The notes under the pieces are model-generated. The model had not been told where the DNA came from. It saw only the letters and a program-made list of their open reading frames with translations, and made no database searches. Shown here piece after piece: positions 1-17,143 of a stretch of 27,765 nucleotides of DNA; position 1 is the first letter of the stretch, and each line of letters starts with the position of its first letter. The stretch lies in the IMG/VR virus record IMGVR_UViG_3300032218_002295. One strand, written 5' to 3'. The position numbers and the translations under genes were made by a program. Origin of the DNA: an uncultured virus (IMG/VR IMGVR_UViG_3300032218_002295) (lineage: Duplodnaviria > Heunggongvirae > Uroviricota > Caudoviricetes).

Positions 1-338
1 TGCATCATTGCTGCTTTTCCGATTGTCATCAATACCGGGTGGTGCTCTTTAAGAGCCATACCCCGCATCAATGATTCTTTGGTCTTACTAGTGCTACTGT
101 AAGGACCATCGAAGAAATACTGTGATGCTGCAATAGCAAATAAACCCAATGACATTTCTGGATTTGCAGAGTTGGTGTGAACCTCATCTGCAAGATTGAA
201 CCAGAAGTCTGGGTCATACTTGCTGAAGTTGGCATAGTCGCAGAACATTGGCTTATAATTAATAAGCACAACGAGCTGCGCTATGTCCGACTTCTCAGCA
301 TCACGTTTGAGAGCCCTATCTAGAATCTCTCTGAACAT
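1..338 (-). CDS. Hypothetical protein, truncated at window start (MFREILDRALKRDAEKSDIAQLVVLINYKPMF...)
   Basis: Not in the ORF track. GGGAGG SD 5 nt before ATG at 338, directly after the VWA gene stop. The frame stays open to base 1. Confidence 0.8.
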   Translation of the reverse strand, partial: MFREILDRALKRDAEKSDIAQLVVLINYKPMFCDYANFSKYDPDFWFNLADEVHTNSANPEMSLGLFAIAASQYFFDGPYSSTSKTKESLMRGMALKEHHPVLMTIGKAAMM

Positions 339-349
339 GATTGCCTCCC

Positions 350-2335
350 TTATCTACTTATCCTGCGCTTTTTGATTGCACCAACTACTACCGATTTGGC
401 TAGTTGGAGTAGGTCTTTGCCGCCATTGATTCGGGCAAAGATTTCTGCACCATGCTGCAGATCATAGCGTGGCTTACCGTGCTGCGCTATGAACTGGCTG
501 TTTGTGTTGGAGACGTCATTGTATGACGCTTCATCCATGATGAGAACTAGAGTTGTTAGAACTCCACGCTTACCGAGTCGCGTAATGATGTCGTTGTTCT
601 TGGCGGAATCAAAGATACCGTCAGTAATAAGGAACATCATCTTGTTAGCTTTTTGAGACATCATAAAGGTTCGCTCAGCTAGGAGCAACGAATCGTGAGG
701 ATCCGTGCCACCATTACCAAAGATGAACCGATAGTTTGTCCTCTCGGCTTTGTCTGTCTTACGATATGCAGTCTCATTCTTATCATCGAATGCATACACT
801 GTAACCGGACAATCAATACTCTCAAGAGCACGCTTAATAGTCCAGCATGCAATTGAGGCTTTTTGATCATTACGTCCAGAACACATTGAAGACGAACGAT
901 CGATTAAGATAACAGCTTCAATGTCTGTGGAGTCATCCCCCTCAGTCCATTGATCGAAAGCTTTATCGATCTCAGCACCACGCATAACACGTAGAACATT
1001 CAGCTTGCCAGTTGGAGTCTCTCGAAGCCAACCTGGTTCTGAATCATCTTTGAGCTTACGTAGTTCATTAGCAAACTTTTTATAATCCATAAGTGCTGCG
1101 GCTGGAACTCTGGTGCTCTCGAACTTACCGAGTGGTGCATCAGCATCCCAGTTCTCATCACCATGGACGATAATGTTTTGCTTGCGCTTGATATCTTTGA
1201 TAACATCTTTTCTATTGTAAATAGTTTGGAGGTCATCATTTAGTTTGTCATTCAGATCTTTGGGAAGTCCACCCTCACTTTTGACGTGGGTATTACCCCA
1301 GGTCTTGCTAAGGGATTCATTCTTCTGCTGATTCTTTTCACGTTCTTGAATTGCTTCATCAGCAGTCTGTGTAATAGTCTCGCCACTACCTTGAGGCATA
1401 CCACCCGGTGTATTACCAGGAGTAATACTTATAGGACCTTCTCCATCACCTTCGCCACTACTTTCTGTTGGCATACAGCCACCAGTCTGTGGTGTTTCTT
1501 GTGATTGTTCGGCAGGTTCTTTTGGTATGTAGAAAGACTCAGGCTTACCCATTCCATTTGCAACTTTAGCATCACGCTCTTGCGCTTTGCCAGGCTCTGG
1601 TCTACCCTTTTTAATAGGTAAACGAGAGTCGCAACCACCAAGACCACACTGAGGTGGAATATCTAACTGAGATATTACCAAGTCATGGAACTCTTGAATG
1701 AGTTTTTCTGCTCGCTTATAATCCCGAGGGAATGCTAAGCAACGATACTCATTGGTGATGCGTTGAATGTCTGGGATAAGTTCTGGCTTATAGAACAGAT
1801 CTCTGAATGCTTCACGAATACCGACGTCAATGTGTCTACGACCTGCAATGAGAGGATAGTTAGTAAAGGCAGCGTCTGGTGTGCTTTGAAGCCACACTAA
1901 AGCTGCAGTCTGAAGATACGGCATAACACTTGGATACCTAGCACAGAGTAAAGACTCGATGCGTTGATCTTCCAGGATATTGAATGCAGTATAGTAATCA
2001 TTATTGATTACCCACTTTACTAGGTTAGTTCCCTCACGAGGTGTATAGAAATGATGGGCTAGCTCATGGTAGTTGAGGCCAGAGAGCTTAGTTAGCATTT
2101 CCATAGACATATCGCCGATGTATTTTTCGTTGATATATATGTTTTCACCATCGGACCAAGTAACAGCCGGACCATCCGATACAACATTAACGTTGATTGG
2201 ATCGCCTGTGAGGATGCGGTCAGCACCCTCATAGACCCGAGACATAGCTGAGAGCTGTAAAGCTCTCAGCTGTGCCGCTTCGGTCTTAACTGCACTGGAA
2301 CGACGGCTAGACTCTTCATCATCTATATACGCCAT
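350..2335 (-). CDS. CobT-like / VWA-domain protein with N-terminal HEXXH metallopeptidase-like region (partner of the adjacent AAA+ ATPase)
   Basis: NYHELAH (HEXXH) and FNILEDQRIE motifs, an acidic/Gly-Pro linker, and a C-terminal VWA with MIDAS DRSSS, GGT and ITDG. Lies directly downstream of a MoxR-type ATPase. Confidence 0.9.
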   Translation of the reverse strand: MAYIDDEESSRRSSAVKTEAAQLRALQLSAMSRVYEGADRILTGDPINVNVVSDGPAVTWSDGENIYINEKYIGDMSMEMLTKLSGLNYHELAHHFYTPREGTNLVKWVINNDYYTAFNILEDQRIESLLCARYPSVMPYLQTAALVWLQSTPDAAFTNYPLIAGRRHIDVGIREAFRDLFYKPELIPDIQRITNEYRCLAFPRDYKRAEKLIQEFHDLVISQLDIPPQCGLGGCDSRLPIKKGRPEPGKAQERDAKVANGMGKPESFYIPKEPAEQSQETPQTGGCMPTESSGEGDGEGPISITPGNTPGGMPQGSGETITQTADEAIQEREKNQQKNESLSKTWGNTHVKSEGGLPKDLNDKLNDDLQTIYNRKDVIKDIKRKQNIIVHGDENWDADAPLGKFESTRVPAAALMDYKKFANELRKLKDDSEPGWLRETPTGKLNVLRVMRGAEIDKAFDQWTEGDDSTDIEAVILIDRSSSMCSGRNDQKASIACWTIKRALESIDCPVTVYAFDDKNETAYRKTDKAERTNYRFIFGNGGTDPHDSLLLAERTFMMSQKANKMMFLITDGIFDSAKNNDIITRLGKRGVLTTLVLIMDEASYNDVSNTNSQFIAQHGKPRYDLQHGAEIFARINGGKDLLQLAKSVVVGAIKKRRISR

Positions 2336-2347
2336 TATCGTCCTTCT

Positions 2348-3790
2348 CTACTTGTTGTTGGATTTCAGCCAAGCATCGACTTCTTCGCCAATGGTCTCAA
2401 CTGCGGGATCTGTTGCTGTATTCGCTTCGTCTTTATGTAAGCCGAAGTCTGACTTGATATTGTATTCGTGTGTCATGAGGACAAGTGCAACCTTTTCTTG
2501 CTCTTCTTTATCGAAGTGAGCAACAAAGTTAGCAATTGCGAACTCATAATTGAACTGAACAATTTCTTCAAGCTCCATCAACATGTTGGTTGAGATAGGT
2601 GTATCAATCTCACCCTTAGCAGACTCACTGCGTAATTGCTTAGCAATTGTGAGAATTGCCTTGGACTTAACCAACTTGGCTTCTACTTCATCGTCATAAT
2701 CCCATGGAATTTGGATTGTAAAACGATTTCGCATTGCGAAGTTGAGTGGAGTGGTGCCGATGTAATCTGGATTCATAGTAGCAAATACAGTCAGGTCTGG
2801 ATGAGCCTGAATGGTTTCACCATGATGATCCAGAAGAATCAAACAACGACGACCATCAATCAAGGAATACAGGATGGTATAGATCTTAGGTGAGATGAAG
2901 TTCAATTCGTCAAGAATTAAAACACCACCATTACGGACAACGTCAGTTACTGGACCGTCAATCCACTCAAAGCCACCTTTACCGTCTGGAACATATTTTC
3001 CAATCAGTTGGCTTGGCTCAAGAGCAGCATTACCGGATACAGCAGCAAGACGTAGTCTATTTTTTGCAGCCCATGCAATAACAGATGTTGTTTTACCAGG
3101 GCCAGTTGGGCCGTAGATAAGAACTTCACGCTTATTGGCTCGTGCATAGTCGAAGACATCAAAGTCAAGAACACCACCCGTTAGATTACGGTTGATATAC
3201 TTGTCAGCAGCTTCGATAGGGGGAATACTTGCCAGGGCGATCTTGAGTTTGCCGGAAGAATTAACTTCCTCATACTCAACATCCTCAATCACAACGTCAG
3301 CCTGAACGGCGTCAGCGGCGATTGTTTGTGTTGGCGATGCAATGAATGGCGTTTCTTCTTGAGAATCACGTTGACGACGTAAGTCAATAACTTGTGCTTC
3401 TAATGATGTGTCATTGCTGCTGACCTGATCGTGAAGAGATGTGATTCGTTGTGCAACTGAACCAAACTCCTCATCTTTCTCAGCATTCTCATAAGCAGAC
3501 ATTGCCTTTGTAGACAATACAGGGGACCAACCATTCTCACGAATGGCTTGCTCATCTGCTGCTGTAACATGAATGCCAAGCGGCTTAACAGTAATGTATT
3601 CATTAGAAGACATAGTTGTATTCAACAATACAGGCAGAGAAGTTTCTTCCCAGCGGTTGTGTTTCCCCGCTGTTCCGTCTGTTGTGCGTGAATAGACTTT
3701 GGTTGTCCCATCGATAGGAACGATAAGAGTTTGTCGCTTCTTATCTTCCATAGACGGTTCATATGTCTCTACGAACATCGCTATATTCAT
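2348..3790 (-). CDS. MoxR/CbbQ/CobS-type AAA+ ATPase with long N-terminal extension
   Basis: Walker A GPTGPGKT, Walker B VLILDELN, sensor-1 ATMNP, Arg finger AMRNRF and the family-typical EWIDGPV segment. VWA partner is adjacent. Confidence 0.92.
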   Translation of the reverse strand: MNIAMFVETYEPSMEDKKRQTLIVPIDGTTKVYSRTTDGTAGKHNRWEETSLPVLLNTTMSSNEYITVKPLGIHVTAADEQAIRENGWSPVLSTKAMSAYENAEKDEEFGSVAQRITSLHDQVSSNDTSLEAQVIDLRRQRDSQEETPFIASPTQTIAADAVQADVVIEDVEYEEVNSSGKLKIALASIPPIEAADKYINRNLTGGVLDFDVFDYARANKREVLIYGPTGPGKTTSVIAWAAKNRLRLAAVSGNAALEPSQLIGKYVPDGKGGFEWIDGPVTDVVRNGGVLILDELNFISPKIYTILYSLIDGRRCLILLDHHGETIQAHPDLTVFATMNPDYIGTTPLNFAMRNRFTIQIPWDYDDEVEAKLVKSKAILTIAKQLRSESAKGEIDTPISTNMLMELEEIVQFNYEFAIANFVAHFDKEEQEKVALVLMTHEYNIKSDFGLHKDEANTATDPAVETIGEEVDAWLKSNNK

Positions 3791-3846
3791 TTGCCTTACC
3801 CTTTCAGTTTGAGGTTAACTGCATACCTGAATTGATATGCAGGCCG

Positions 3847-3891
3847 TGTGCTAGTTAGGATTCGAACCTAACATTAGCGCCAACCTAGCAC
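3847..3891 (-). ncRNA. Minimal tRNA-like element (acceptor stem + T arm, no anticodon arm)
   Basis: Minus strand reads GTGCTAG-GTTGGCGCTAATG-TTAGG-TTCGAAT-CCTAA-CTAGCAC-A: perfect 7-bp acceptor stem, 5-bp T stem, canonical T loop, discriminator A, no CCA. Confidence 0.75.
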
Positions 3892-3893
3892 TG

Positions 3894-3938
3894 AAAGAAG
3901 AGAAGAGCCAGCGCCGATAGCAGACACGCTGGCCCTTC
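3894..3938 (-). terminator. Terminator-like hairpin upstream of the tRNA-like element
   Basis: Minus strand GAAGGGCCAGCGT...GCGCTGGCTCTTC (13-bp stem with G-U pairs) followed by pyrimidine tract TCTTCTTT. Confidence 0.5.
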
Positions 3939-4100
3939 ACCTACAGATTACTTACTCAATGAAGAAGATACTTTAGTTGTGATATCGCACTTGTACCCCA
4001 CGCTATAGTTCTAAAAAGAATCACCGATAAACAGACGTGCATTCGAATTAGAGACTGCAATGACCGACGTTGCTTACTCCCTGTTTCTCTAATAAAGAGC

Positions 4101-4763
4101 CTAGCCCTCGGTAGGTTCTTCGTCAAGGATGAAGCCGGTTGCAATATCTAATCGCAGCGGCTTTCCATCCCACTCAGTAGGTATGTTTTTACCACCCCAC
4201 TGAATCTTTCCTGTTTCTTTACACGAACTACACGCAGCAATTTCGCGGTGTGGTTCTGAGGTATTATTATTGGTGCAGTGATGAAAGATGCCTATAGATC
4301 TATTATCAAATGTCTTGATAGTTCTATAAGGAGAAGAATCACCATTACAAGTAAAGGTAAATGTTCCTTGACCTCTGCATTTAGAGCAGCGTCTAACCTT
4401 TAGTGGTGTAGTTGGGTCAAAACTACGGTGTAAATAATACTTGCCGTTTTTATAACCTAACTCTTTGAGGTTTGCATACTGGGCAACAACTCTACGAATA
4501 GATGGTCGCATAGCCCGCCAATTGGTTGTGTCGGGCAAGATTACAACACCATTAGGTTTGTATGTTAGAAATACAAAACTATGATAGTTGTATCGCAAGT
4601 GAATTGTTTCTGAATCAATAAGATACAGAGTCAATCCACGGTCATATAAATACCGCTTTTCATCTGGCGTTTGACCTGCTTTTATAAATGCTAAGGCTGA
4701 ATCAAAGTCATGGACTTTAGCGTCTTTATTACAGGGCAGGATTTGTTCAAGATCTACTGGCAA
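4101..4763 (-). CDS. Hypothetical protein with DnaJ-type zinc-finger motifs
   Basis: CSKCRGQG and CSSCKETG (CxxCxGxG-like). AGGAGG SD 6 nt before TTG at 4763, which fits better than the track start at 4811. Confidence 0.75.
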   Translation of the reverse strand: MPVDLEQILPCNKDAKVHDFDSALAFIKAGQTPDEKRYLYDRGLTLYLIDSETIHLRYNYHSFVFLTYKPNGVVILPDTTNWRAMRPSIRRVVAQYANLKELGYKNGKYYLHRSFDPTTPLKVRRCSKCRGQGTFTFTCNGDSSPYRTIKTFDNRSIGIFHHCTNNNTSEPHREIAACSSCKETGKIQWGGKNIPTEWDGKPLRLDIATGFILDEEPTEG

Positions 4764-4773
4764 TATACACCTC

Positions 4774-5091
4774 CTAGATGTCGTGGATCTTTTTCTTGCG
4801 TAGTTTGGCACGTTGCTCTTGTGTCATTCCACCCCAGATACCATAGTTCTGTTCAGTATCAAAGGCAAACTGACGACAGGCGTCGATAACGGGACACTGT
4901 GCACAGATTGCTAAAGCTCTCTGTATTCGAGCGTCTTTAACTTCACCACGCTCCATGTCCTCATAGAAGAAATCATCTCCACCTATTTGATTACATAGGG
5001 CTTGATCTTGCCATTTCCAGTTTGAATATACTGGAGCTGGCATCTTCTGATTGATTAGGGGTGGTTTGTATCTCTTACTTTTCGTAGACAT
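4774..5091 (-). CDS. whiB: WhiB-family (Wbl) Fe-S transcription regulator
   Basis: W..QALC, DFFY, AICAQCPVIDAC (four Cys), YGIWGGMT turn and a basic C-terminus. Start uncertain (5091 or 5100). Confidence 0.95.
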   Translation of the reverse strand: MSTKSKRYKPPLINQKMPAPVYSNWKWQDQALCNQIGGDDFFYEDMERGEVKDARIQRALAICAQCPVIDACRQFAFDTEQNYGIWGGMTQEQRAKLRKKKIHDI

Positions 5092-5341
5092 CGATCTCAA
5101 GCCTCAATACATCTGATGTATCTTGACTTTGGAACAACTTAACTACATTCTTCTTGTCAACTACAATGCCTGAGTCATCCCATCCGTAAGGGGATACAAA
5201 TAGGAACTCACGCTTATCTTCACAAGAAGGGGTTACCATACGGACATCAGCGATGTTATTAAGATCGATAGGTGCGCCGTATTCATAACTGTATTTGCGT
5301 ATTTCACGTAACAATTTACGTGTTTTAATTGCTTTAAACAC
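5075..5341 (-). CDS. Hypothetical protein
   Basis: AAAGGAG SD before GTG at 5341. Overlaps the whiB start in an operon-like arrangement. Confidence 0.75.
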   Translation of the reverse strand: MFKAIKTRKLLREIRKYSYEYGAPIDLNNIADVRMVTPSCEDKREFLFVSPYGWDDSGIVVDKKNVVKLFQSQDTSDVLRLEIDVYEK

Positions 5342-5366
5342 TAGCCTTCTCCTTTATTATGAGTGA

Positions 5367-5431
5367 TGAGCCTTTTTACCTTAGGTCATGCTCAGGACCA
5401 AGTAGCAGTTTTAATTAACATGCTCAGGTTA
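5367..5431 (-). promoter_or_regulatory. Tandem H-type pseudoknot-like RNA elements sharing loop CCUGAGCAUG
   Basis: Minus strand TAAC-CTGAGCAT-GTTA-ATTAAAAC-TGCT, then GGTC-CTGAGCAT-GACC-TAAGGTAAAAAG-GCTCA. Different stems, same loop, and A-rich tails complementary to the loop. Confidence 0.6.
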
Positions 5432-5524
5432 TTTGTGCAGCGGAAGAGACGATTTCAACACCCAGTGTTTCCCAGTCAAGTCGCTACCCAATGCTATGTG
5501 CGGCCGTGTTTGTGTTGGCGCACG

Positions 5525-5659
5525 TTATTCTGGGCGGGCAAGCTTATCAATGTCAGTGATTAGGTCTTTAACCTGCTCCTGCATTAATTCAAGCTGTTCT
5601 TCCAGAGATGCGAATAGAATATTTAAGTCTTGAACTATTCTCTTGATTTCACTACTCAT
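5525..5659 (-). CDS. Small coiled-coil protein, 44 aa (MSSEIKRIVQDLNILFASLEEQLELMQEQVKDLITDIDKLARPE)
   Basis: Below the ORF-track cutoff. GGAGG SD, ATGA overlap with the upstream stop, and a heptad pattern. Confidence 0.75.
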   Translation of the reverse strand: MSSEIKRIVQDLNILFASLEEQLELMQEQVKDLITDIDKLARPE

Positions 5660-5901
5660 GATGCCTCCGGAGTATTGAACATACTCCATCCATCTTCATT
5701 AATAGTGTATGGATGTTCAGCCCAGTAAGGTAAGCCATTGTCATCAATGTGCCAATGACCAACTAGACCTGAGATGTTCTTAGATTTAGGGATGACACGA
5801 ACCCATGTAGTTACATTGAGAACGTGCATCTTCAGTTTATTTGGTAAGCGTAAGAACACTTTGCCCGGAATCTTGTCGTAGATCCTTGCTTGTATGTTCA
5901 C
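5656..5901 (-). CDS. Hypothetical protein
   Basis: GGAGG SD 5 nt before GTG at 5901 (track start 5913). Stop is coupled to the next gene. Confidence 0.7.
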   Translation of the reverse strand: MNIQARIYDKIPGKVFLRLPNKLKMHVLNVTTWVRVIPKSKNISGLVGHWHIDDNGLPYWAEHPYTINEDGWSMFNTPEAS

Positions 5902-6010
5902 AGTTACCTCCATTCAATTTAATCAACTCTTTTGCAAAGACTATTGCAATAGTATTAATTGAGATTGGTTGACTTGATTTGATATTAAGATTGAACTGAT
6001 ACTGGTGCAT
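5837..6010 (-). CDS. Possible small protein, 57 aa (MHQYQFNLNIKSSQPISINTIAIVFAKELIKLNGG...)
   Basis: AAGGGAG SD before ATG at 6010, but it overlaps both neighbours, including ~65 nt of the downstream gene. Confidence 0.45.
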   Translation of the reverse strand: MHQYQFNLNIKSSQPISINTIAIVFAKELIKLNGGNCEHTSKDLRQDSGQSVLTLTK

Positions 6011-6266
6011 CAGATTCTCCCTTTTTGTAGACCTTTCCAGTCTTCCAATGTGGGATAGATGGGTGGTCAGCACGACCACCTAATGCTTTCCAGGCTTCAC
6101 GTCGAGCGTGTCCAGCCGCACTGCGACCTTCTACACGACCAGGACGTGATTCGAACTTAACCTTGACACCATCAGGGCCAGGATTCTTTTTCCATGCTTT
6201 ACCATTTGGACGGTTATCATTACGTCCTGTGCTTTTGGCGTTTCCGCCACCTTTACCCTTTGCCAC
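5985..6266 (-). CDS. Small Gly/Lys/Arg-rich hypothetical protein
   Basis: AAAGGAG SD before GTG at 6266. Basic, low-complexity sequence. Confidence 0.75.
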   Translation of the reverse strand: MAKGKGGGNAKSTGRNDNRPNGKAWKKNPGPDGVKVKFESRPGRVEGRSAAGHARREAWKALGGRADHPSIPHWKTGKVYKKGESDAPVSVQS

Positions 6267-6287
6267 TTAAGGCTCCTTTCGGGGGGA

Positions 6288-6791
6288 TTATTTACGCTGA
6301 GGAGACGATCTCCACAGATGATCACTTGCAGACTTAACATTTATAGCTGCTAAGCCCATTTCAACCAGCACATCATCGATGCGCCATTTCAACTCCTCTA
6401 ACGCACGAGGAGTGAATTTCATAAGTGCAATTTCCTTCTCATCTTGAATCATTAAGAAGGCTGATTCACCATCACTACAGCCGATGGTGTATGCAGTCTT
6501 GGTTTTGAAGACATTGCTCGTATGTGCGAATAGGGGATTGAGCAAGCCATGTCGTTTCCAAGCACCGACAATATCAAGGCAATTAGGTTCATCGCTTGAT
6601 TCTGTGCGGCGCCGGCGTTTGTTTGTGTTGGCAGCACTATTAGCCATATCAATGGCCTCATCTTCATGCTGTGTTATTGATTCGAGCTTGGCTTGGTTAT
6701 CTTTGATGACATCAGGATTAGAATTAATCTCATCCAATTTATCCTCAACCATATCCATAGCCTTGCGACTAGGAGTCTTTCTCTTAGTCAT
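6288..6791 (-). CDS. Hypothetical protein
   Basis: GGAGG SD, ATG coupled to the upstream stop, 167 aa. Confidence 0.8.
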   Translation of the reverse strand: MTKRKTPSRKAMDMVEDKLDEINSNPDVIKDNQAKLESITQHEDEAIDMANSAANTNKRRRRTESSDEPNCLDIVGAWKRHGLLNPLFAHTSNVFKTKTAYTIGCSDGESAFLMIQDEKEIALMKFTPRALEELKWRIDDVLVEMGLAAINVKSASDHLWRSSPQRK

Positions 6792-6889
6792 TTATTCCTC
6801 CGAACTATTGCAACAGTAATCCTAGTTACTATGTAACCAAAGACTAGCATTAGCAATGATGTGTCGGAGATGTCGAGGTGAATTATCAC
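6788..6889 (-). CDS. Small membrane peptide, 33 aa (MIIHLDISDTSLLMLVFGYIVTRITVAIVRRNK)
   Basis: AGGAGG SD 5 nt before GTG at 6889. Hydrophobic helix with a basic tail; ATGA overlap with the next gene. Confidence 0.7.
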   Translation of the reverse strand: MIIHLDISDTSLLMLVFGYIVTRITVAIVRRNK

Positions 6890-6926
6890 CGCTTCCTCCT
6901 ATGGTTCGGGCATTACTATCTGTCGA

Positions 6927-7157
6927 GAGACAGATAGGGAGCACACTCATGCTATACGTATCGATCTGTAATCGTAGTTAGAGCGCAGGCTGCAGACCAT
7001 TACTCGTTCTCAGAGCTCACACGGCTATCAGATATATATGCTCTGTTACCCAATAGCCTCACATCTCCTTTTGCGTGATTACATAGGCATGCCGAGGACG
7101 CACGGCTGTGGCCTCGGACGTAGATGTATAACTCTGAGTGTGCTTCCTACCAGTCCC
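6927..7157 (-). ncRNA. Candidate structured RNA element A (23-bp closing stem)
   Basis: Arms 6927-6949 and 7135-7157 are complementary (19 Watson-Crick, 2 G-U, 2 mismatches on minus). Nested inner stems and a pseudoknot at 7011-7058. Strand uncertain. Confidence 0.55.
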
Positions 7158-7264
7158 TACTTATGTTCTTTCATGTGGTTCTGCAAGGTGATGTGTGCAA
7201 AGCCAGAGCGAACCTCTATCTCTTTCTTACATACCTTACAGACCACAACCCTACCGGCTGCCAC
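7157..7264 (-). CDS. C2H2-like zinc-finger miniprotein, 35 aa (MAAGRVVVCKVCKKEIEVRSGFAHITLQNHMKEHK)
   Basis: TAGTG stop/start coupling, AGGA SD, and C-x2-C-x17-H-x3-H. Confidence 0.75.
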   Translation of the reverse strand: MAAGRVVVCKVCKKEIEVRSGFAHITLQNHMKEHK

Positions 7265-7530
7265 TAGTGATTCCTAGTAGTGAAATACTCCGCAGCATCA
7301 TTGACGTTATCAAAGTATTCACCCCACACGCAGCCCCCTGTGTGATGGTTGTAAGTCCATACAACAAAGGGATGGTATGAAGATGCCGGAGCATAACAAA
7401 GGATTACGTCTGAGCCTGGCATTCCTGGTTTTAGATTAAGAACGGTAGCGCCACTTGAGACACCACCATCACCCTGAAGGATGGTTCCAATCTTTATAGT
7501 TACAATTTCGGGGGACAATTTAGCCCTCAC
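7264..7530 (-). CDS. Hypothetical protein
   Basis: GTGA coupling with the upstream gene; aromatic-rich C-terminal half (HPFVVWTY...WGEYF). Confidence 0.75.
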   Translation of the reverse strand: MRAKLSPEIVTIKIGTILQGDGGVSSGATVLNLKPGMPGSDVILCYAPASSYHPFVVWTYNHHTGGCVWGEYFDNVNDAAEYFTTRNH

Positions 7531-7766
7531 TTTCTTAGTAGTCGGAACAGGTATCTAACCCACCAAGCATGGGTGGCAAAGAGCCTGTCTTTTGTTTCAT
7601 CAATACATACATCAAAGATTTCCGATTTGGGATTGTAATTAGTCATTACATCTTTGATTGCATCGTTGAGGAATAGAGAATCGTTTGCGGTGTAATCCTC
7701 GCGGTCTATCTTAGGCTCTTCACCTGAGTAATAGATAGATACAAGGATTGTCTTGCGCTTCAGCAT
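7527..7766 (-). CDS. Hypothetical protein
   Basis: AAAGGAGG SD and TAATG coupling. Confidence 0.75.
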   Translation of the reverse strand: MLKRKTILVSIYYSGEEPKIDREDYTANDSLFLNDAIKDVMTNYNPKSEIFDVCIDETKDRLFATHAWWVRYLFRLLRK

Positions 7767-7942
7767 TACTTGCCTCCTTTAGGCCAATAACAATCGAGGG
7801 AAGACTTGAAACAATAATGGTCTCCCATCCAATTGATGTGATCCATCAGGAACGTCCCAACGGAGAGCACAGCAATGATGAGGGAAGACCAGAAGATGTA
7901 TCTACACGCTGTTCTTACTTGGTAGTATCTCTTGGTTCTCAT
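7766..7942 (-). CDS. Small membrane protein, 58 aa (MRTKRYYQVRTACRYIFWSSLIIAVLSVGTFLMDHINWMGDHYCFKSSLDCYWPKGGK)
   Basis: Not in the track. GAAAGGA SD, basic N-terminus plus one hydrophobic helix, TAATG coupling to the next gene. Confidence 0.75.
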   Translation of the reverse strand: MRTKRYYQVRTACRYIFWSSLIIAVLSVGTFLMDHINWMGDHYCFKSSLDCYWPKGGK

Positions 7943-7972
7943 TGCATTCCTTTCACCTCACTACCAGATAGG

Positions 7973-8197
7973 TAGAGAGGGGCAGACACACTGAGCATAG
8001 AAGGAATGAGATTAAGAGTCTATGGCCGGCCTTTGTAACGAGTCCAACATCTTAGCTGAATTTATCTGTGTGTTATCTTCTCAGGCGAGCGACATCTATG
8101 GCGGGGTTCAGCACCACTCATGGTCTCCCGGATCATAGTAAAACGTCCTCACTCTTAGGCTACATCTTCTATCACTCAATGTGCCTGCCTCCCTCTA
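7973..8197 (-). ncRNA. Candidate structured RNA element B (~31-bp closing stem)
   Basis: Arms 7973-8003 and 8166-8197 are complementary. Four plus-strand A-C oppositions become G-U on minus. Nested TAAGAGT/ACTCTTA, CCGG/CCGG and GCTGAA/TTCAGC stems. Confidence 0.6.
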
Positions 8198-8262
8198 ACT
8201 TTCGCGGGAAAAATTTCGCGGGGGGATTTTTACTGTGGTAAAGCAATAGATACATAGAGAGA

Positions 8263-8359
8263 GATAGATAGTGGTATTCCCATACTCGCCACCCATTTAC
8301 AGGCATAAAGCCAATGGTGGTTGCTAGTAACTACAGGGAGTATCAGCCCACTATCTACC
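8263..8359 (-). other. Structured non-coding element C
   Basis: Minus strand GGTAGATAGTGG/CCACTATCTATC 12-bp closing stem with inner ATACTC/GAGTAT pairing. No ORF. Confidence 0.45.
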
Positions 8360-8410
8360 TTTCACCAGATACCTAGAAGCAAGACATCCAAATTAAACTT
8401 GAAAAAGTAT

Positions 8411-8448
8411 AAAAAAAAGGGGAGACCGTGATGATACACAGTCTCCCC
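8411..8448 (-). terminator. Intrinsic terminator after the six-Cys peptide gene
   Basis: Minus strand GGGGAGACTGTG-TATCAT-CACGGTCTCCCC followed by T8. Confidence 0.85.
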
Positions 8449-8461
8449 TCCTTCTATGAGA

Positions 8462-8566
8462 TTAGCAAGTAACCTCGGGTGAGCAATCCGACCACTCAAG
8501 TCGGCACTCGTCGATGTTATGCATTAGACATACATAACAGCCGTCTGTCTCACAGTCGTGGGACAT
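8462..8566 (-). CDS. Six-cysteine acidic peptide, 34 aa (MSHDCETDGCYVCLMHNIDECRLEWSDCSPEVTC)
   Basis: AAGGAGGTG SD 6 nt before ATG at 8566; intrinsic terminator 13 nt after the stop. Confidence 0.7.
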   Translation of the reverse strand: MSHDCETDGCYVCLMHNIDECRLEWSDCSPEVTC

Positions 8567-8620
8567 AGATACCACCTCCTTCCAATGGTGTTGCTATGGA
8601 GGTGTAAGGCTACAAGAGAT

Positions 8621-8634
8621 GTTTCACGTGAAAC
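8621..8634. promoter_or_regulatory. parS: parS-like palindrome GTTTCACGTGAAAC
   Basis: Exact match to the 14-bp Streptomyces/Mycobacterium parS core and 15/16 to TGTTTCACGTGAAACA. Intergenic. Confidence 0.65.
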
Positions 8635-8722
8635 TATCTGATAATAGCCAGAGATGCCCGTCCCAGACCTGGTGTTACAACCGGAGAGCGAGTGCCTGCC
8701 TTATGTAGTGGCTAAACAGCCA

Positions 8723-8756
8723 TAGCCAGACAGGAGGTTTCCCCCCTGCCTGACTA
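8723..8756 (-). other. 15-bp RNA hairpin with GAAA tetraloop
   Basis: Minus strand TAGTCAGGCAGGGGG-GAAA-CCTCCTGTCTGGCTA. Three G-U pairs and a GNRA loop define the strand. No U tract. Confidence 0.7.
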
Positions 8757-8777
8757 GAGCCTTTTAGACCCTGCCGA

Positions 8778-9353
8778 TTACCCTTGGAATGTTCCCTTGA
8801 GTAATGCGAAGATTGGCAGCAAGAGATTTTTAGCCTCTTGTGTCATCTCCTGACCCAGAACCGCCTCAACAGATGCTTTGAAGGCTGGTGCGGTAGAAGC
8901 AAGTGATGCTTGTGCTTCTGCCTTAGCAGCCTTATCCGCTTCCTTCTTGAGAGCGATAGCAGCAGCCTTGGATGCTAGAACATCCTTGGCTTCATCGACA
9001 GACATGGAAAGGCAAGACTTGATGTCTTCCCAATTGACTGAGGTGAATGCGGCAACAACTTCTGCCTCAATGCCCTTAGCAATAAGAGCACCGAGATAGA
9101 TTGGTCGTTGATACCCATTGGTAAGGAACTTCTTATCAACAGACTCAGCGTCTGTCTTATCTCCACGATTTGCCATAGCAGCAATGACCTTGCCACGAGT
9201 GTCCGATAGCAGGTCGTCAATAGACCCGCCGTCATAGAAGAACGAAGCAACAGCGCGACGAACTTCTGGGGCGGCGAGATTTGCGTTACCAGCAACGAAT
9301 ACACTCTGTGATACAGAGTCAAGGCTTACAGCCTCTTGTGTGATTGTAGACAT
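8778..9353 (-). CDS. Hypothetical Ala-rich helical protein, first gene of the leftward arm
   Basis: 191-aa ORF with protein-like composition and a weak AGGT SD. No recognisable motif. Confidence 0.8.
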   Translation of the reverse strand: MSTITQEAVSLDSVSQSVFVAGNANLAAPEVRRAVASFFYDGGSIDDLLSDTRGKVIAAMANRGDKTDAESVDKKFLTNGYQRPIYLGALIAKGIEAEVVAAFTSVNWEDIKSCLSMSVDEAKDVLASKAAAIALKKEADKAAKAEAQASLASTAPAFKASVEAVLGQEMTQEAKNLLLPIFALLKGTFQG

Positions 9354-9573
9354 GGCTACCTATCTGGGAATACATACGCTACCAATTTGATAGCGTAGAG
9401 GTATGCCCGTGTGTGGCTGGGAGTCGAACACGCAAAGGGTCGCGCCGTATGGTGAAGCCATACGCCAGAATGTTTATGTTGGAACATCGTTACCGAACCC
9501 ACACGAAGGCAGGACTGAACGGCAGGGCATAACACCCGCTAATGGATAATTTTATGAGATAAAAAAAATACAT

Positions 9574-9602
9574 AAAAAAAGCACAAGGCTCTCGCCTTGC
9601 GC
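9574..9602 (-). terminator. Intrinsic terminator-like hairpin in the divergent region
   Basis: Minus strand GCGCAAGGC-GAGA-GCCTTGTGC followed by T7; GNRA loop and one G-U pair. Confidence 0.7.
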
Positions 9603-9784
9603 TAGCGGGCTACATCATCAACCGCCGTTCATTATGTATGGTATTGACCACCGATAATGACCCCCATGGGTTAAACGAACGCTGTGAACCATATCTCCAG
9701 GTGAGACAGGCAACCATGACCTATGGTGTGATGGCAGTGGCCTAAAAAATTTCAAGGTCGGGGGAATATTAAGCAGTGGCTTGG

Positions 9785-9793
9785 TGTTATTAT
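9785..9793 (+). promoter_or_regulatory. Extended -10 promoter for hsp20
   Basis: TG-T-TATTAT, followed by a 5' hairpin (TGTCCT...GGGACA) at the expected +1. Confidence 0.5.
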
Positions 9794-9846
9794 TAGCTGT
9801 CCTGCCAATCGGGGGACAAATCAACCTATATCGTCTAAGGAGATAT

Positions 9847-10281
9847 ATGCACATCACTTATGCTCAGAATCAATCTCAAACCTTCAATTCACTATACCCA
9901 GGCTTCACTAAATGGGCAATTGGGTTTGATCCTCTAATTAATACTTTCAATCAGATCTCACAGTCTAAAGATAACTATCCTCCATATAACGTTCGCAAAG
10001 AGGGGGAGCAACACATCCTAGAACTAGCTGTAGCTGGATTTACTAAGGATGAACTAGACATTGAGGTCAAAGAACTTCTACTAACAGTGACGGGCACCAA
10101 AGCCAAGAATGAGGCGGAGTATGTTTATCAGGGCATCTCAGCAAAGAGCTTCTCTCGGGAGTTCGCTTTGGCGGAGTATGTCATCGTCAAGGGAGCCAAG
10201 TTCCAGGATGGTCTACTTACTATCACCCTGGAGCAGGAGCTTCCTGAAGAGAAAAAGGCTAAAACCATCAGTATCGAGTAA
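9847..10281 (+). CDS. Small heat-shock protein (Hsp20/IbpA-like)
   Basis: IGFD, NYPPYNV, ILELAVAGF, YVYQGI...FSREFAL, A.FQDGLLTI and C-terminal IxI (ISI). AAGGAG SD before ATG at 9847 (track start 9781 is too long). Confidence 0.95.
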   Translation: MHITYAQNQSQTFNSLYPGFTKWAIGFDPLINTFNQISQSKDNYPPYNVRKEGEQHILELAVAGFTKDELDIEVKELLLTVTGTKAKNEAEYVYQGISAKSFSREFALAEYVIVKGAKFQDGLLTITLEQELPEEKKAKTISIE

Positions 10282-10295
10282 TCTGTACTGACACG

Positions 10296-10330
10296 AAGGC
10301 CTCCCTACCACTGGTACGGGAGGTCTTTGT
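10296..10330 (+). terminator. Hairpin/terminator after hsp20
   Basis: AAGGCCCTCCC...GGGAGGTCTT followed by TGT; imperfect stem. Confidence 0.45.
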
Positions 10331-10372
10331 CTATGGTATGCTTTACGGGCATCGAAACGAGAGGGTTTTAAA

Positions 10373-10939
10373 TTGACTACACTTGCTGCTATACAAGGTA
10401 AAGGCTGGTCAGTAATAGGTTGCGATAGCCGTGCATCCGATGAAGACGGACGTTTTATGGAGTTAGCTACTCCAAAGGTCATTGATAATGCTGGAGTACT
10501 CATTGCAGTCTCTGGAGCATCTCGCGGTGGAAACATTACACAGTTCGGATGGAAACCCCCTAAGCCACGTGCAGGCGAAGATCTAGATATCTTTATGACT
10601 AAGAAGTTTATCCCTAGCATGCGTAAGGCTTTCCAGGATGCAGGTTATGATGCTAAGGATGATGGAGATGCTGCTTGGCAGGATTCTAACCTCATTATCT
10701 CTGTAAGAGGAACCCTCTACCCGATCTTTAATGATTACTCTTGGGATAGAGAAGCCCGCAACGTTTATTACGCCGGATCTGGTGGCGACCTTGCAATGGG
10801 TGCATTAGAGATATTAGATTACACAAAAGCAAAAACACCACAGGCCGCCGAAAAACTGCTCCGCAAAGCTATTGAAGCTGCGTGCAAGCATGACATATAT
10901 TCGGGTGGAGAGATTCACACATACATCCAAGAAGCGTAA
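10373..10939 (+). CDS. HslV/proteasome-beta-like Ntn threonine protease
   Basis: M-TTLAAI N-terminal Thr nucleophile, GCDSR (Asp17), Lys near position 33 (TPKV), YYAGSGG, and C-terminal HDIYSGGEI. Confidence 0.88.
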   Translation: MTTLAAIQGKGWSVIGCDSRASDEDGRFMELATPKVIDNAGVLIAVSGASRGGNITQFGWKPPKPRAGEDLDIFMTKKFIPSMRKAFQDAGYDAKDDGDAAWQDSNLIISVRGTLYPIFNDYSWDREARNVYYAGSGGDLAMGALEILDYTKAKTPQAAEKLLRKAIEAACKHDIYSGGEIHTYIQEA

Positions 10940-15602: not shown

Positions 15603-16547
15603 ATGGCAACAAATAACGATGGACACGTACTTGATTCTTCAGGTAACGTAGCCGTAGATTTCGTATGGGGTAACTTTGCCCCTCAGCCTAATGACGTTCG
15701 ACTTGCATCACCTTCACAGACAGTCACTGTCGGTGGAAGCCAGAATGTTAGCTGGACAAACTATGGCACAAAGAACAGCGGATACCTAGATTTCGCAGCA
15801 GATAGCCACGCTATCATTGAAGCTGAGTGGTCAGGATACCCATCATTCACAGCAGGAACAGGAAAGTTCAACATCACCCAGGTTTCTGGCGATGGAACAA
15901 CCGTTCGCTTTGAGTCATACAACGAGCTTACAGCTGGAGATGTCGTTACTATCACAGGATGCGACACATTTAATCTTTCATCAGCTACAGTAGCTAAGGC
16001 TACACGTGATTACTTCACAGTAACCAATTCAACAACAGGTTCACTTATCAACATCAACAATGGTATCGTACAGCTTTCAAATGCTCTAACAGCAGCTGAT
16101 GGCGCATTTGTGTCAGGCGTTGCATATGTTCGTGTTCCAAATGTTGTTGGTCTTGTTCTCGCTTCAGCTCAAGATGCCCTTGCTGACGCAGAACTTACAG
16201 TAACAACCGCTTCTGCTGTAACCCCAGCTATCTCTAACGTAGCTCGTACAGGTACTTTGGTAACTATCACAACTGCAGCAGCTCATGGCTATGCAGCAGG
16301 TGACTCAGCTGTAATCGCAGCTGTAACTAACACAGCTGTAAACGGAACATTTACCCTTGTTTCAGCTTCAGGCTCAACCCTTACATACAACACTGTATCT
16401 TCCGGAACAATTGCTTCAGGCGCAGATACGGGTACTGTTAAGGTTGCAGCTCGTGCCAATACAGTTAAGACACAGTCTATTGCTGCTGGTACAGCTTCAG
16501 TTGCAGTTGCTGCCGCAATTACAATCACACCTTACTACGCTTCATAA
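15603..16547 (+). CDS. Probable virion protein with beta-rich repeats and a split PASTA-like domain
   Basis: VRVPNVVGLVLASAQDALADAELTV and TVKTQSIAAG...AAITIT (the two PASTA halves), plus two ~55-aa beta repeats. Codon bias resembles the major capsid gene. Confidence 0.8.
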   Translation: MATNNDGHVLDSSGNVAVDFVWGNFAPQPNDVRLASPSQTVTVGGSQNVSWTNYGTKNSGYLDFAADSHAIIEAEWSGYPSFTAGTGKFNITQVSGDGTTVRFESYNELTAGDVVTITGCDTFNLSSATVAKATRDYFTVTNSTTGSLININNGIVQLSNALTAADGAFVSGVAYVRVPNVVGLVLASAQDALADAELTVTTASAVTPAISNVARTGTLVTITTAAAHGYAAGDSAVIAAVTNTAVNGTFTLVSASGSTLTYNTVSSGTIASGADTGTVKVAARANTVKTQSIAAGTASVAVAAAITITPYYAS

Positions 16548-16560
16548 TCTCAACACAAAC

Positions 16561-16593
16561 AAAAAGCCCCCAGCTAATAACTGGGGGCTTTTT
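16561..16593. terminator. Bidirectional intrinsic terminator
   Basis: AAAAAGCCCCCAG-CTAATAA-CTGGGGGCTTTTT between convergent genes. Confidence 0.9.
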
Positions 16594-16603
16594 GCTTTGC
16601 TAA

Positions 16604-17143
16604 TTATCCGGGAAATTTAGATAACCAGATTGTCACAGCTGGTTCTGATGCAGACCCATCGTATGCATTAGGGCCTACGCCCCAAGATCCAAAGTTCTCA
16701 CCATGTGAGCTCATGTAGTATGCGGCTTGAGCATTTGTAACTGGATCGAGTAGCTCAGCATCTTTAGAGATACCAAACTTTTCCCGTCGTTCTGATCCTA
16801 GGCTTCCTCGCATGTTAATTTGAAAAAGACCATAAGAATCGTCGCCAGTTGATGCGTTTCCATTATGGGATAGGGGATGGCCACGAGATTCTCTCATTAC
16901 AATGGCCCAGGCAGTTCTTAGAGATTTTCCTGAAAAACCTACTAACTTGAGTAGATCTGCCAGTTCCGTATCTGAGAGGCTTGTTGCTCCCCGATATTGG
17001 TCTAAGCCTGTCTTTACTTGTGTAGACACAGTTGACCCGTCATTAACGGGACCTGCGGGTTCTGCGGCCCAAGCCGATTGACTTAAAGGAAGTAGAACCG
17101 TTAAAGCTAATACACTTACTTTACGTTTTCCATTAAAATTCAC
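16604..17143 (-). CDS. Secreted lysozyme-like / SLT lytic transglycosylase
   Basis: Signal peptide ending AWA, AIVMRES (catalytic Glu), DSYGLFQIN, LLDPVTNAQAA. AGGAG SD before GTG. Confidence 0.9.
   Translation of the reverse strand: MNFNGKRKVSVLALTVLLPLSQSAWAAEPAGPVNDGSTVSTQVKTGLDQYRGATSLSDTELADLLKLVGFSGKSLRTAWAIVMRESRGHPLSHNGNASTGDDSYGLFQINMRGSLGSERREKFGISKDAELLDPVTNAQAAYYMSSHGENFGSWGVGPNAYDGSASEPAVTIWLSKFPG

Follow-up and report, generated by a model that had tools for sequence, protein, structure and literature searches.

Conserved RNA structures at the head of a leftward operon in an uncultured ~99-kb phage lineage: candidate punctuation of an early transcript

In the early mRNA of bacteriophage T7, processing signals for RNase III lie between the genes, and in bacterial rRNA operons the 16S and 23S rRNA are flanked by processing stems. 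Bacteria also carry transcribed inverted-repeat elements, such as Correia and ERIC, which are cut by RNase and dispersed as near-identical mobile copies. In T4-type phages, PMC2839356 describes PeSL (promoter-early stem-loop) cassettes that combine a strong sigma-70 promoter with a terminator stem-loop; the motifs gather in variable regions of small genes annotated without function, and differences between close relatives start or stop at the motifs. Here, we analyze positions 6916-9640 (the island) of a 27,765-nt sequence (the window) from the uncultured Caudoviricetes virus IMGVR_UViG_3300032218_002295, where a structured leader (U), three long-stemmed elements (A, B, and C), and two terminators (T1 and T2) are interspersed with small genes. 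These elements are very probably RNA-level structures under selection on the minus strand, undescribed in Rfam 15. Our favoured, still tentative reading, to which we assign a rough probability of 45%, is that they are cis-acting punctuation of an early transcript, serving in processing by a double-stranded-RNA nuclease and in protection of RNA ends, and doubling as recombination joints.

Minus-strand genes extend up to ~9640, including a CobS/CobT-like AAA_5 and VWA pair and a WhiB-like factor, and plus-strand genes run from ~9848 (Hsp20, HslV-like peptidase, terminase, portal, major head protein, and collagen-like fibres); therefore, the island is the head of the leftward arm and adjoins the divergence point. 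The phage host is probably actinobacterial. With P0001, a 191-aa protein encoded in the island, as anchor, scans of IMG/VR and JGI metagenomes retrieved seven distinct contigs (L001/L007, L002, L003, L004, L005, L006, and L008). The relatives are metagenomic ~99-kb phages, and three of the contigs are ~99-kb records rated complete. By blastn, 9848-8632 is kept at ~71% in four contigs, 7506-6917 in three, and T2 in two, while the interiors of B and C have no match in the related contigs. The order leader, P0001, hairpins, T2, C, B, o88, zf35, A (Table 1) is common to the relatives reaching that far. Searching 6800-9700 with blastn against 50,697 phage records gave no match.

An earlier reading made from the letters of the window (the sequence-only reading) had described about half of the island as non-coding, with nearly every gap folding, and its description holds. 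Minus-strand open reading frames (ORFs) sum to ~1480 of the 2725 nt (~54%), leaving ~46% non-coding; the gaps, on the sense strand of a leftward operon, are interspersed with conserved microprotein genes, as the ORF map and synteny confirm. Folding z-scores, computed on the minus strand against 200 dinucleotide shuffles, are -2.9 for A, -4.4 for B, -3.2 for C, -4.1 for the peptide leader (8567-8777), and -6.0 for 9354-9640, and in 7/7 elements folding is stronger on the minus than on the plus strand. The distinctive traits of the island are its long closing stems and the covariation seen in relatives. Only one local inverted repeat of at least 16 nt lies in 1-6950, and those of A, B, and C cluster in 6900-8400.

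The sequence-only reading had asked for syntenic alignments and a covariation check, and these show that the gaps are conserved in relatives and that their stems carry compensatory changes; because of these changes, the stems are not decayed inverted repeats. For the leader domain H2, the covariance model R1 finds one copy per locus in 8/8 sequences (E 1e-16 to 1e-32) and one per complete genome in 3/3, a ninth weak match (E 0.13) having been dropped from the alignment by a re-run at E<=1e-5. In this alignment, 94.3% of 212 cells are paired and 14 of 31 pairs changed on both sides; none of 500 shuffles equals this, and slid controls reach 30-59%. The z-score of H2 is -4.3 on the sense strand versus -0.3 on the antisense strand. 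Element A, kept in L003, L005 (cut by the contig end), and L006, has 63 pairs, of which 15 changed on both sides, with 97.1% of 242 cells paired (0/500 shuffles; slid controls 31-44%); in L001, this place is occupied by a different closed domain. C, aligned with its positional homologues in L001, L003, L005, and L006, has 22 pairs, nine of them changed on both sides. At the position of B, L003, L005, and L006 carry a 285-nt element that has only the flanks and stem ends in common with the window; this B-type element folds into 94 pairs (-97.8 kcal/mol), with five compensatory pairs among three close sequences and many invariant G-U pairs. It also has frame-breaking 1-nt indels, and A likewise has indels that are not a multiple of 3, so neither A nor the B-type element is coding. 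These data bear directly on the explanation that the gaps are unrecognised coding sequence, or fold by chance. Two small real genes, zf35 and tm33, were indeed hidden in the gaps, and low z-scores extend across the whole left arm. Yet the indels just described, the lack of a conserved ORF in A and the B-type element, and paired cells of 94-97% against 30-59% in slid controls make this explanation very improbable.

As the sequence-only reading had suggested, no described RNA family matches the candidate non-coding RNAs (ncRNAs). Rfam 15 at gathering thresholds has no match in the whole window, a scan of 6700-9950 at E<=10 returned only terminator-like noise (best E 0.34), and a scan of the seven relatives at E<=1 gave no match at the island elements. 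Similarly, ARAGORN calls no tRNA or tmRNA gene in the window, and 6700-9950 contains no tRNA-clan match even at E<=10. Parts of the elements may already be listed in the viral structured-RNA catalogue of PMC10690425: four IMG/VR sample numbers are absent from six of its supplements, and the alignment files probably lie outside those six.

The leader spans ~280 nt and consists of a long-range helix around terminator T1, followed by a cloverleaf-like domain with a T-loop-like motif. T1, a G+C-rich hairpin with a U-run at 9603-9580 on the minus strand, and T2 (8455-8412, minus) are the two strong terminators that the sequence-only reading had placed on the sense strand; both are kept in position, and the terminator scan of the minus strand adds only a third, weak 7-pair site inside P0001. 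Two helices enclose T1. P_a (GAACGGCGG/CUGCCGUUC, 8-9 bp) has a matched 1-nt deletion in both strands in L004 and L007, and all eight sequences fold alike from GAACGGCGG on. P_b occurs in four complementary versions (CCCGCUA/UAGCGGG, GCCACA/UGUGGC, GCACACU/AGUGUGC, and GCUAGGC/GCCUAGC). Together, P_a and P_b enclose an invariant 16-mer (UGAUGAUGUAGCCCGC, at 9605-9620 between the two), the stem and U-run of T1, and an A/U-rich spacer. A test for an attenuator found no competing pairing made before the T1 U-run: in 8/8 sequences, the U-run precedes the partner strands of P_a and P_b, so termination cannot depend on this helix. Its formation requires either read-through RNA or the meeting of a short terminated RNA with an mRNA started in the spacer.

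This architecture is where a different explanation, a minor but serious possibility in our estimate, has to be weighed, namely that the elements are cis-regulatory switches instead of processing signals. In the leader, the choice between a stop at T1 and read-through would be made by a ribosome translating the AUG-AUG-UAG mini-frame, by a protein, or by a ligand at the 16-mer or the cloverleaf-like domain. In A, a ribosome translating zf35 to its stop would melt the base stem, upon which CUAUCUGUC would pair with GACAGAUAG and set the expression of tm33 and o167. The 16-mer does sit in an internal loop beside T1, and P_a and P_b cannot coexist with an alternative hairpin, GGCGG/CCGCC. In element A, the base stem begins within the stop codon of zf35, and a conserved alternative partner, GACAGAUAG, for its 3' strand, CUAUCUGUC, lies just downstream; H2 and A also have conserved unpaired loops. 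However, the T1 3' strand has no antiterminator ahead of it because the covarying partners are located past the U-run, and the alternative pairings are all invariant, which places them beyond a covariation test. No riboswitch, T-box, or leader family matches, and the interiors of B and of the element at the A position are replaced between clades, which would be odd for sensors of a ligand or protein.

H2 is closed by the helix UGCCU..GUGUGG / CCACAC..GGGCA and contains a 3-bp hairpin with a GG loop and two or three further hairpins, one with the loop UCCCUU. The T-loop-like motif GUUCGAYUCC lies 5 nt ahead of the 3' closing strand in 7/8 sequences, L006 having GUUCAAUUCC. The GG loop and this motif resemble a tRNA elbow; a 5-bp T-stem cannot be drawn, and neither ARAGORN nor the Rfam tRNA model (RF00005) recognises H2 as a tRNA. 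The resemblance feeds a further explanation, which we consider improbable: that U, B, and A are autonomous, stable, trans-acting ncRNAs of 225-285 nt, for instance decoys or scaffolds, whose closing stems only define their ends. Their large size, branching, strong covariation, and conserved loops speak for it, as does the lack of a known family, and the T-loop-like motif stands exactly 5 nt before the 3' closing strand; T1 near the presumed start would moreover yield a short RNA of ~58 nt. On the other hand, the interiors of B and of the A position are not conserved between clades, L7Ae is absent from the complete relatives (0/3), and P0001 has no recognisable RNA-binding fold. An extended version, a 'non-coding RNA operon', is likewise doubtful: stems acting like rRNA processing stalks would free U, B, and A, one of them with a tRNA-elbow mimic, to act in trans on the machinery or defences of the host early in infection, and a parS-like site (described below) would recruit host ParB.

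A, B, and C are closed by stems of 22-35 bp, long helices of a purine-rich and a pyrimidine-rich arm. In 13 of 16 stems examined, the purine-rich arm is 5' and the pyrimidine-rich arm 3', with sequence in common, and relatives carry three to five such stems per ~2.7 kb. The sequence-only reading had taken A and B as kin by length and by a core in their closing stems. The stems exist and their end motifs are common to both, as members of a family also present in C and in further copies in relatives, but the interiors of A, B, and C are unrelated, and homology between A and B does not extend over their length. The motif TGTATCTCYC occurs six times in the three complete genomes, five times in the islands of G003 and G004, always in sense, and once elsewhere in G002; its reversed control occurs once. 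Homology among L003, L005, and L006 breaks at the stems, one L003 stem is 93% identical to an L005 stem at another position, and the microgenes between stems differ among close relatives.

The same observations could be explained, though this seems quite improbable, if the stems were DNA-level repeats (miniature inverted-repeat or cassette-junction elements) in a hyperplastic region and RNA folding were a by-product. Copies of the repeated family are confined to the island, and breakpoints, the displaced 93%-identical copy, and variable microgenes all sit at or between the stems. Several features speak against it. A, B, C, and U are syntenic and single-copy, and compensatory changes run through their interiors as well as their terminal repeats; within a single genome, the interiors of A, B, and C fail to align with one another, whereas copies of a miniature inverted-repeat transposable element would have interiors that are alike. 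Along the same lines, the sense strand folds better in every element, many G-U pairs are invariant, and sense-strand G-U outnumbers A-C by 36 to 22 in 16 stems (14 of 20 and 2 of 17 pairs from two stem listings). The promoter that is the hallmark of the T4 cassette was not found at the stems: from 6000 to 10500, promoter-like sites number 3 versus 7.1 expected, with none at A, B, or C, and these elements also lack a U-run and are not among the minus-strand terminator-like sites. The island is like PeSL (PMC2839356) in its repeated stem-loops among variable small genes and in the breakpoints at the copies; it differs in the lack of a promoter and a terminator U-run at A, B, and C and in stems that are much longer and enclose structured inserts. 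With Correia and ERIC, the island has in common terminal inverted repeats that make long RNA hairpins inside operons, but its elements are syntenic, with mutually unrelated interiors.

The sequence-only reading had proposed that one early transcript is processed into several structured sRNAs plus mRNAs; the conservation, compensatory changes, sense-strand position, and lack of a described family support it in part. It had passed over the repetition of the stem family, the recombination breakpoints on these stems, the terminator nested in the 5' leader, and the conserved DNA upstream of the leader. Under the punctuation reading that we favour, the stretch is the 5'-proximal part of a leftward operon in a ~99-kb phage lineage, with syntenic RNA structures under RNA-level selection, and the elements would act in four ways. 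(i) Leader: P_a and P_b would pair the first nucleotides after the presumed start with the segment past T1; read-through RNA would thereby have a clamped 5' end, or a second RNA from the A/U-rich spacer would form a ~16-bp duplex. (ii) Processing: the long and almost perfect helices of A, B, and C and the hairpin after P0001 would be substrates for a host nuclease of the RNase III type. Cutting would produce separately stable units, as at T7 early sites or rRNA-flanking stems, and the same helices may shield the RNA ends. (iii) Termination: T1 and T2 would bound the transcription units. (iv) Exchange: the repeated closing stems would serve as joints at which microgene cassettes pass between genomes.

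Three points favour punctuation: the long helices, the alternation with genes, and the retention of position and stem while the interiors of B and of the A site are replaced between clades, which fits a generic structural role. The comparison with T7 is close in several respects. Both have related, irregular, intergenic hairpins on the sense strand of an early polycistronic unit with a closing terminator, and the island helices span at least about two turns (22-35 bp), long enough for a double-strand nuclease. Unlike the T7 signals, the island stems enclose payloads of 30-240 nt with their own covarying structure, their sequences are unrelated, and their cleavage is a prediction. The rRNA processing stems offer a second parallel, since distant 5' and 3' arms pair around a structured RNA to form a double-strand site for its release; the island payloads, however, are not rRNA and are set between protein-coding microgenes.

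Transcript data touch on one gene. Four of the 13 runs listed are RNA libraries, all from one freshwater study, and each of the four has one contig, 93-98% identical (8-29 differences), that covers P0001 only. The contigs span 8775-9370 in two runs, 8825-9370 in one, and 8820-9209 in one; P0001 is thus the only part of the stretch covered in these runs, and their lack of coverage outside 8775-9370 is no evidence either way. Three contigs end 17 nt before the P0001 start codon, two of these also 3 nt past its stop, and such ends at the borders of P0001 hint weakly at a discrete unit.

A number of points weigh against the favoured reading. These contig ends come from one study, may reflect breaks at strain variation, and cannot show true RNA ends. 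The conserved unpaired loops and multi-branch shapes of A, H2, and B exceed what a nuclease site needs, and the conserved loops (GUUCGAYUCC, UCCCUU, and the 16-mer) point to specific partners. An RNase III gene is present in 0/3 complete relatives, so a host enzyme must be assumed, and no promoter can be placed with confidence. Because the partners of P_a and P_b lie past the U-run, the helix cannot by itself explain passage of T1. The covariation draws on three to eight sequences from about three clades, the H2 alignment was fitted to its own model, and the structure of A was counted on the alignment from which it came. Quite apart from how the elements work, strong folding does not by itself distinguish the island because the whole left arm folds well: a 200-nt scan gives z<-2.5 for 10 of 18 island windows, compared with 17 of 45 elsewhere in the left arm and 15 of 118 right-arm windows.

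For phages that infect abundant, uncultured freshwater bacteria, nearly all that is known comes from protein annotation. Here, ~1.2 kb of one early operon is given to RNA structure that is kept by compensatory evolution and belongs to no described family, including three domains of 225-285 nt and a leader with a terminator nested in a long-range helix. If the stems are processing signals, punctuation like that of T7 would exist in an unrelated phage group, together with a cassette shuffling similar to that of T4 PeSL; release of the domains as stable RNAs would instead make them new large phage ncRNAs.

Table 1. Features of the island and its borders in the window, ordered leftward from the divergence point (MFE, minimum free energy).
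Feature	Position	Strand	Basis
Conserved upstream region	9630-9790	.	long invariant blocks, 8/8 sequences
Leader helix H1	9516-9629	minus	MFE architecture alike in 8/8 sequences; z -6.1
Leader domain H2, cloverleaf-like	9400-9515	minus	covariance model R1, covariation
Hairpin H3 and ribosome-binding region (CCCAGAUAGGUAGCC-AUG) of P0001	9354-9399	minus	alignment, RNAalifold pairs 288-292/298-302
P0001, 191-aa all-helical protein	8778-9353	minus	10 homologues, 49-97% identity
Structured stretch after the P0001 stop, running into the o37 ribosome-binding site	8576-8777	minus	z -4.1; conserved blocks in 8 sequences; partial covariation
o37, Cys-rich microprotein gene	8462-8575	minus	ORF list; probable ATG 8566 after GGAGG
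Intrinsic terminator T2	8412-8455	minus	19-pair stem and U-run; conserved in L003, L006
Element C, 73-nt apical insert	8247-8375	minus	inverted repeat I2; z -3.2
Element B, 225-nt rod-like domain, ~34-bp closing stem	7973-8197	minus	z -4.4 to -4.9
o58	7766-7942	minus	not found in relatives
o79	7527-7766	minus	not found in relatives
o88	7264-7530	minus	conserved at 54-78%
zf35, 35 aa, CxxC..H..H	7157-7264	minus	conserved in L001, L003, L005, L006
Element A, 240-nt branched domain, base stem ~32 pairs	6917-7156	minus	covariation; starts in the zf35 stop codon
tm33, 33-aa hydrophobic microprotein gene after A, end overlapping the o167 start	6788-6889	minus	GGAGGA ribosome-binding site

The region upstream of the leader contains two GCCACTGCC direct repeats, CCTTGAAA, CCTGTCTCACCTGG, and TAACCCATAGGGG. 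RNAalifold gave no covariation support there (covariation term +0.69; 1/24 pairs compensatory), and these ~170 nt are probably promoter or operator DNA for the leftward unit, judging from the conserved blocks. On the plus strand, TCGGGGGA occurs three times (7508-7515, 9758-9765, and 9809-9816) versus 0.44 expected, with three matches in 0/100 shuffles; its complement, UCCCCCGA, also sits ahead of the B-type element in relatives. For the neighbouring Hsp20 gene, the probable start is ATG 9848, preceded by AAGGAG, instead of the listed TTG 9781; in relatives, the 70 nt between the two are kept as non-coding DNA.

The invariant 16-mer has 46 loci in IMG/VR, of which only the four in already-known contigs are real and 41 have no flank match; the locus in L024, with 21 nt in common, was taken as a chance match. 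A 20-base pattern scanned against 185,579 species genomes gave 14 matches, all in G+C-rich coding DNA and without flank similarity or an R1 match, and the scan provided no clue to a host or prophage.

Downstream of P0001, the structured stretch comprises a long hairpin (CAGGCAGGGG..CCCCUGUCUGG), the block GGCUGUUUAGCC, a conserved hairpin (CUCYCC..UUGUAACACCAG..GGGRG), and a hairpin with a parS-like apex. The parS consensus of Actinomycetota and Bacillota is a 16-bp palindrome, and the apex palindrome, TGTTTCACGTGAAACT at 8620-8635, matches 15/16 bases of the consensus, in agreement with the parS that the sequence-only reading had placed mid-stretch. The window, L004, and L008 carry an exact copy of its 14-nt core, GTTTCACGTGAAAC; L001 differs from it at one base, and L003, L005, and L006 lack it. 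Where the chromosomal sites and the phage site differ is in setting: the latter lies at the apex of an RNA hairpin within an operon and is missing from one clade. In the L001 clade, the parS-like hairpin is lengthened by G-U pairs possible only on the sense strand. None of the three complete relatives has a ParB_N gene, so ParB binding at this site would need a host protein. The microprotein gene o37 that follows has no sequence homologue in the relatives. In L005, other Cys-rich micro-ORFs (4722-4910 and 5058-5171) fill the o37 slot between the post-gene hairpins and T2.

P0001 has no Pfam or PHROG match, and its Atlas matches are viral hypothetical proteins only; the AlphaFold model (pLDDT 84) has no PDB match at E<=0.001.

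Among the genes next to A, zf35 is a hidden small gene whose position the sequence-only reading had used as a boundary. Its pattern, CxxC..17..HxxxH, is kept in all four relatives reaching it. It appears to be translationally coupled to o88, with a GTG start over the o88 stop (TAGTG overlap). A similar 37-aa ORF is found at the tm33 position in L003 and L006. The protein o88 (motif QGDGGVS..YHPFV.W) has distant homologues of 26-38% identity in 22 other viral contigs (L072-L093), the neighbouring genes of which are not shared; an extension of the family through these contigs was rejected, since they have no match to zf35, P0001, or R1.

Several sites elsewhere were recorded in passing. Relatives have tRNA genes beyond Hsp20, on the other arm (L008 2539-2609 and 2731-2812; L001 3842-3912), and the window has none. 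In the gap 3791-4100, positions 3845-3897 on the minus strand form a tRNA-like minihelix with a 7-bp acceptor-like stem (GUGCUAG/CUAGCAC) and a perfect T-arm (UUAGG-UUCGAAU-CCUAA); it is without a D or anticodon arm and is not called by ARAGORN or Rfam. Positions 1-349 fold very strongly on both strands (z -8.7 and -7.0) despite an overlapping open frame at 3-338. Lastly, a near-perfect 20-nt palindrome with flanking A/T runs at 16557-16597, between the convergent genes 15603-16547 (plus) and 16604-17143 (minus), is probably a bidirectional terminator.

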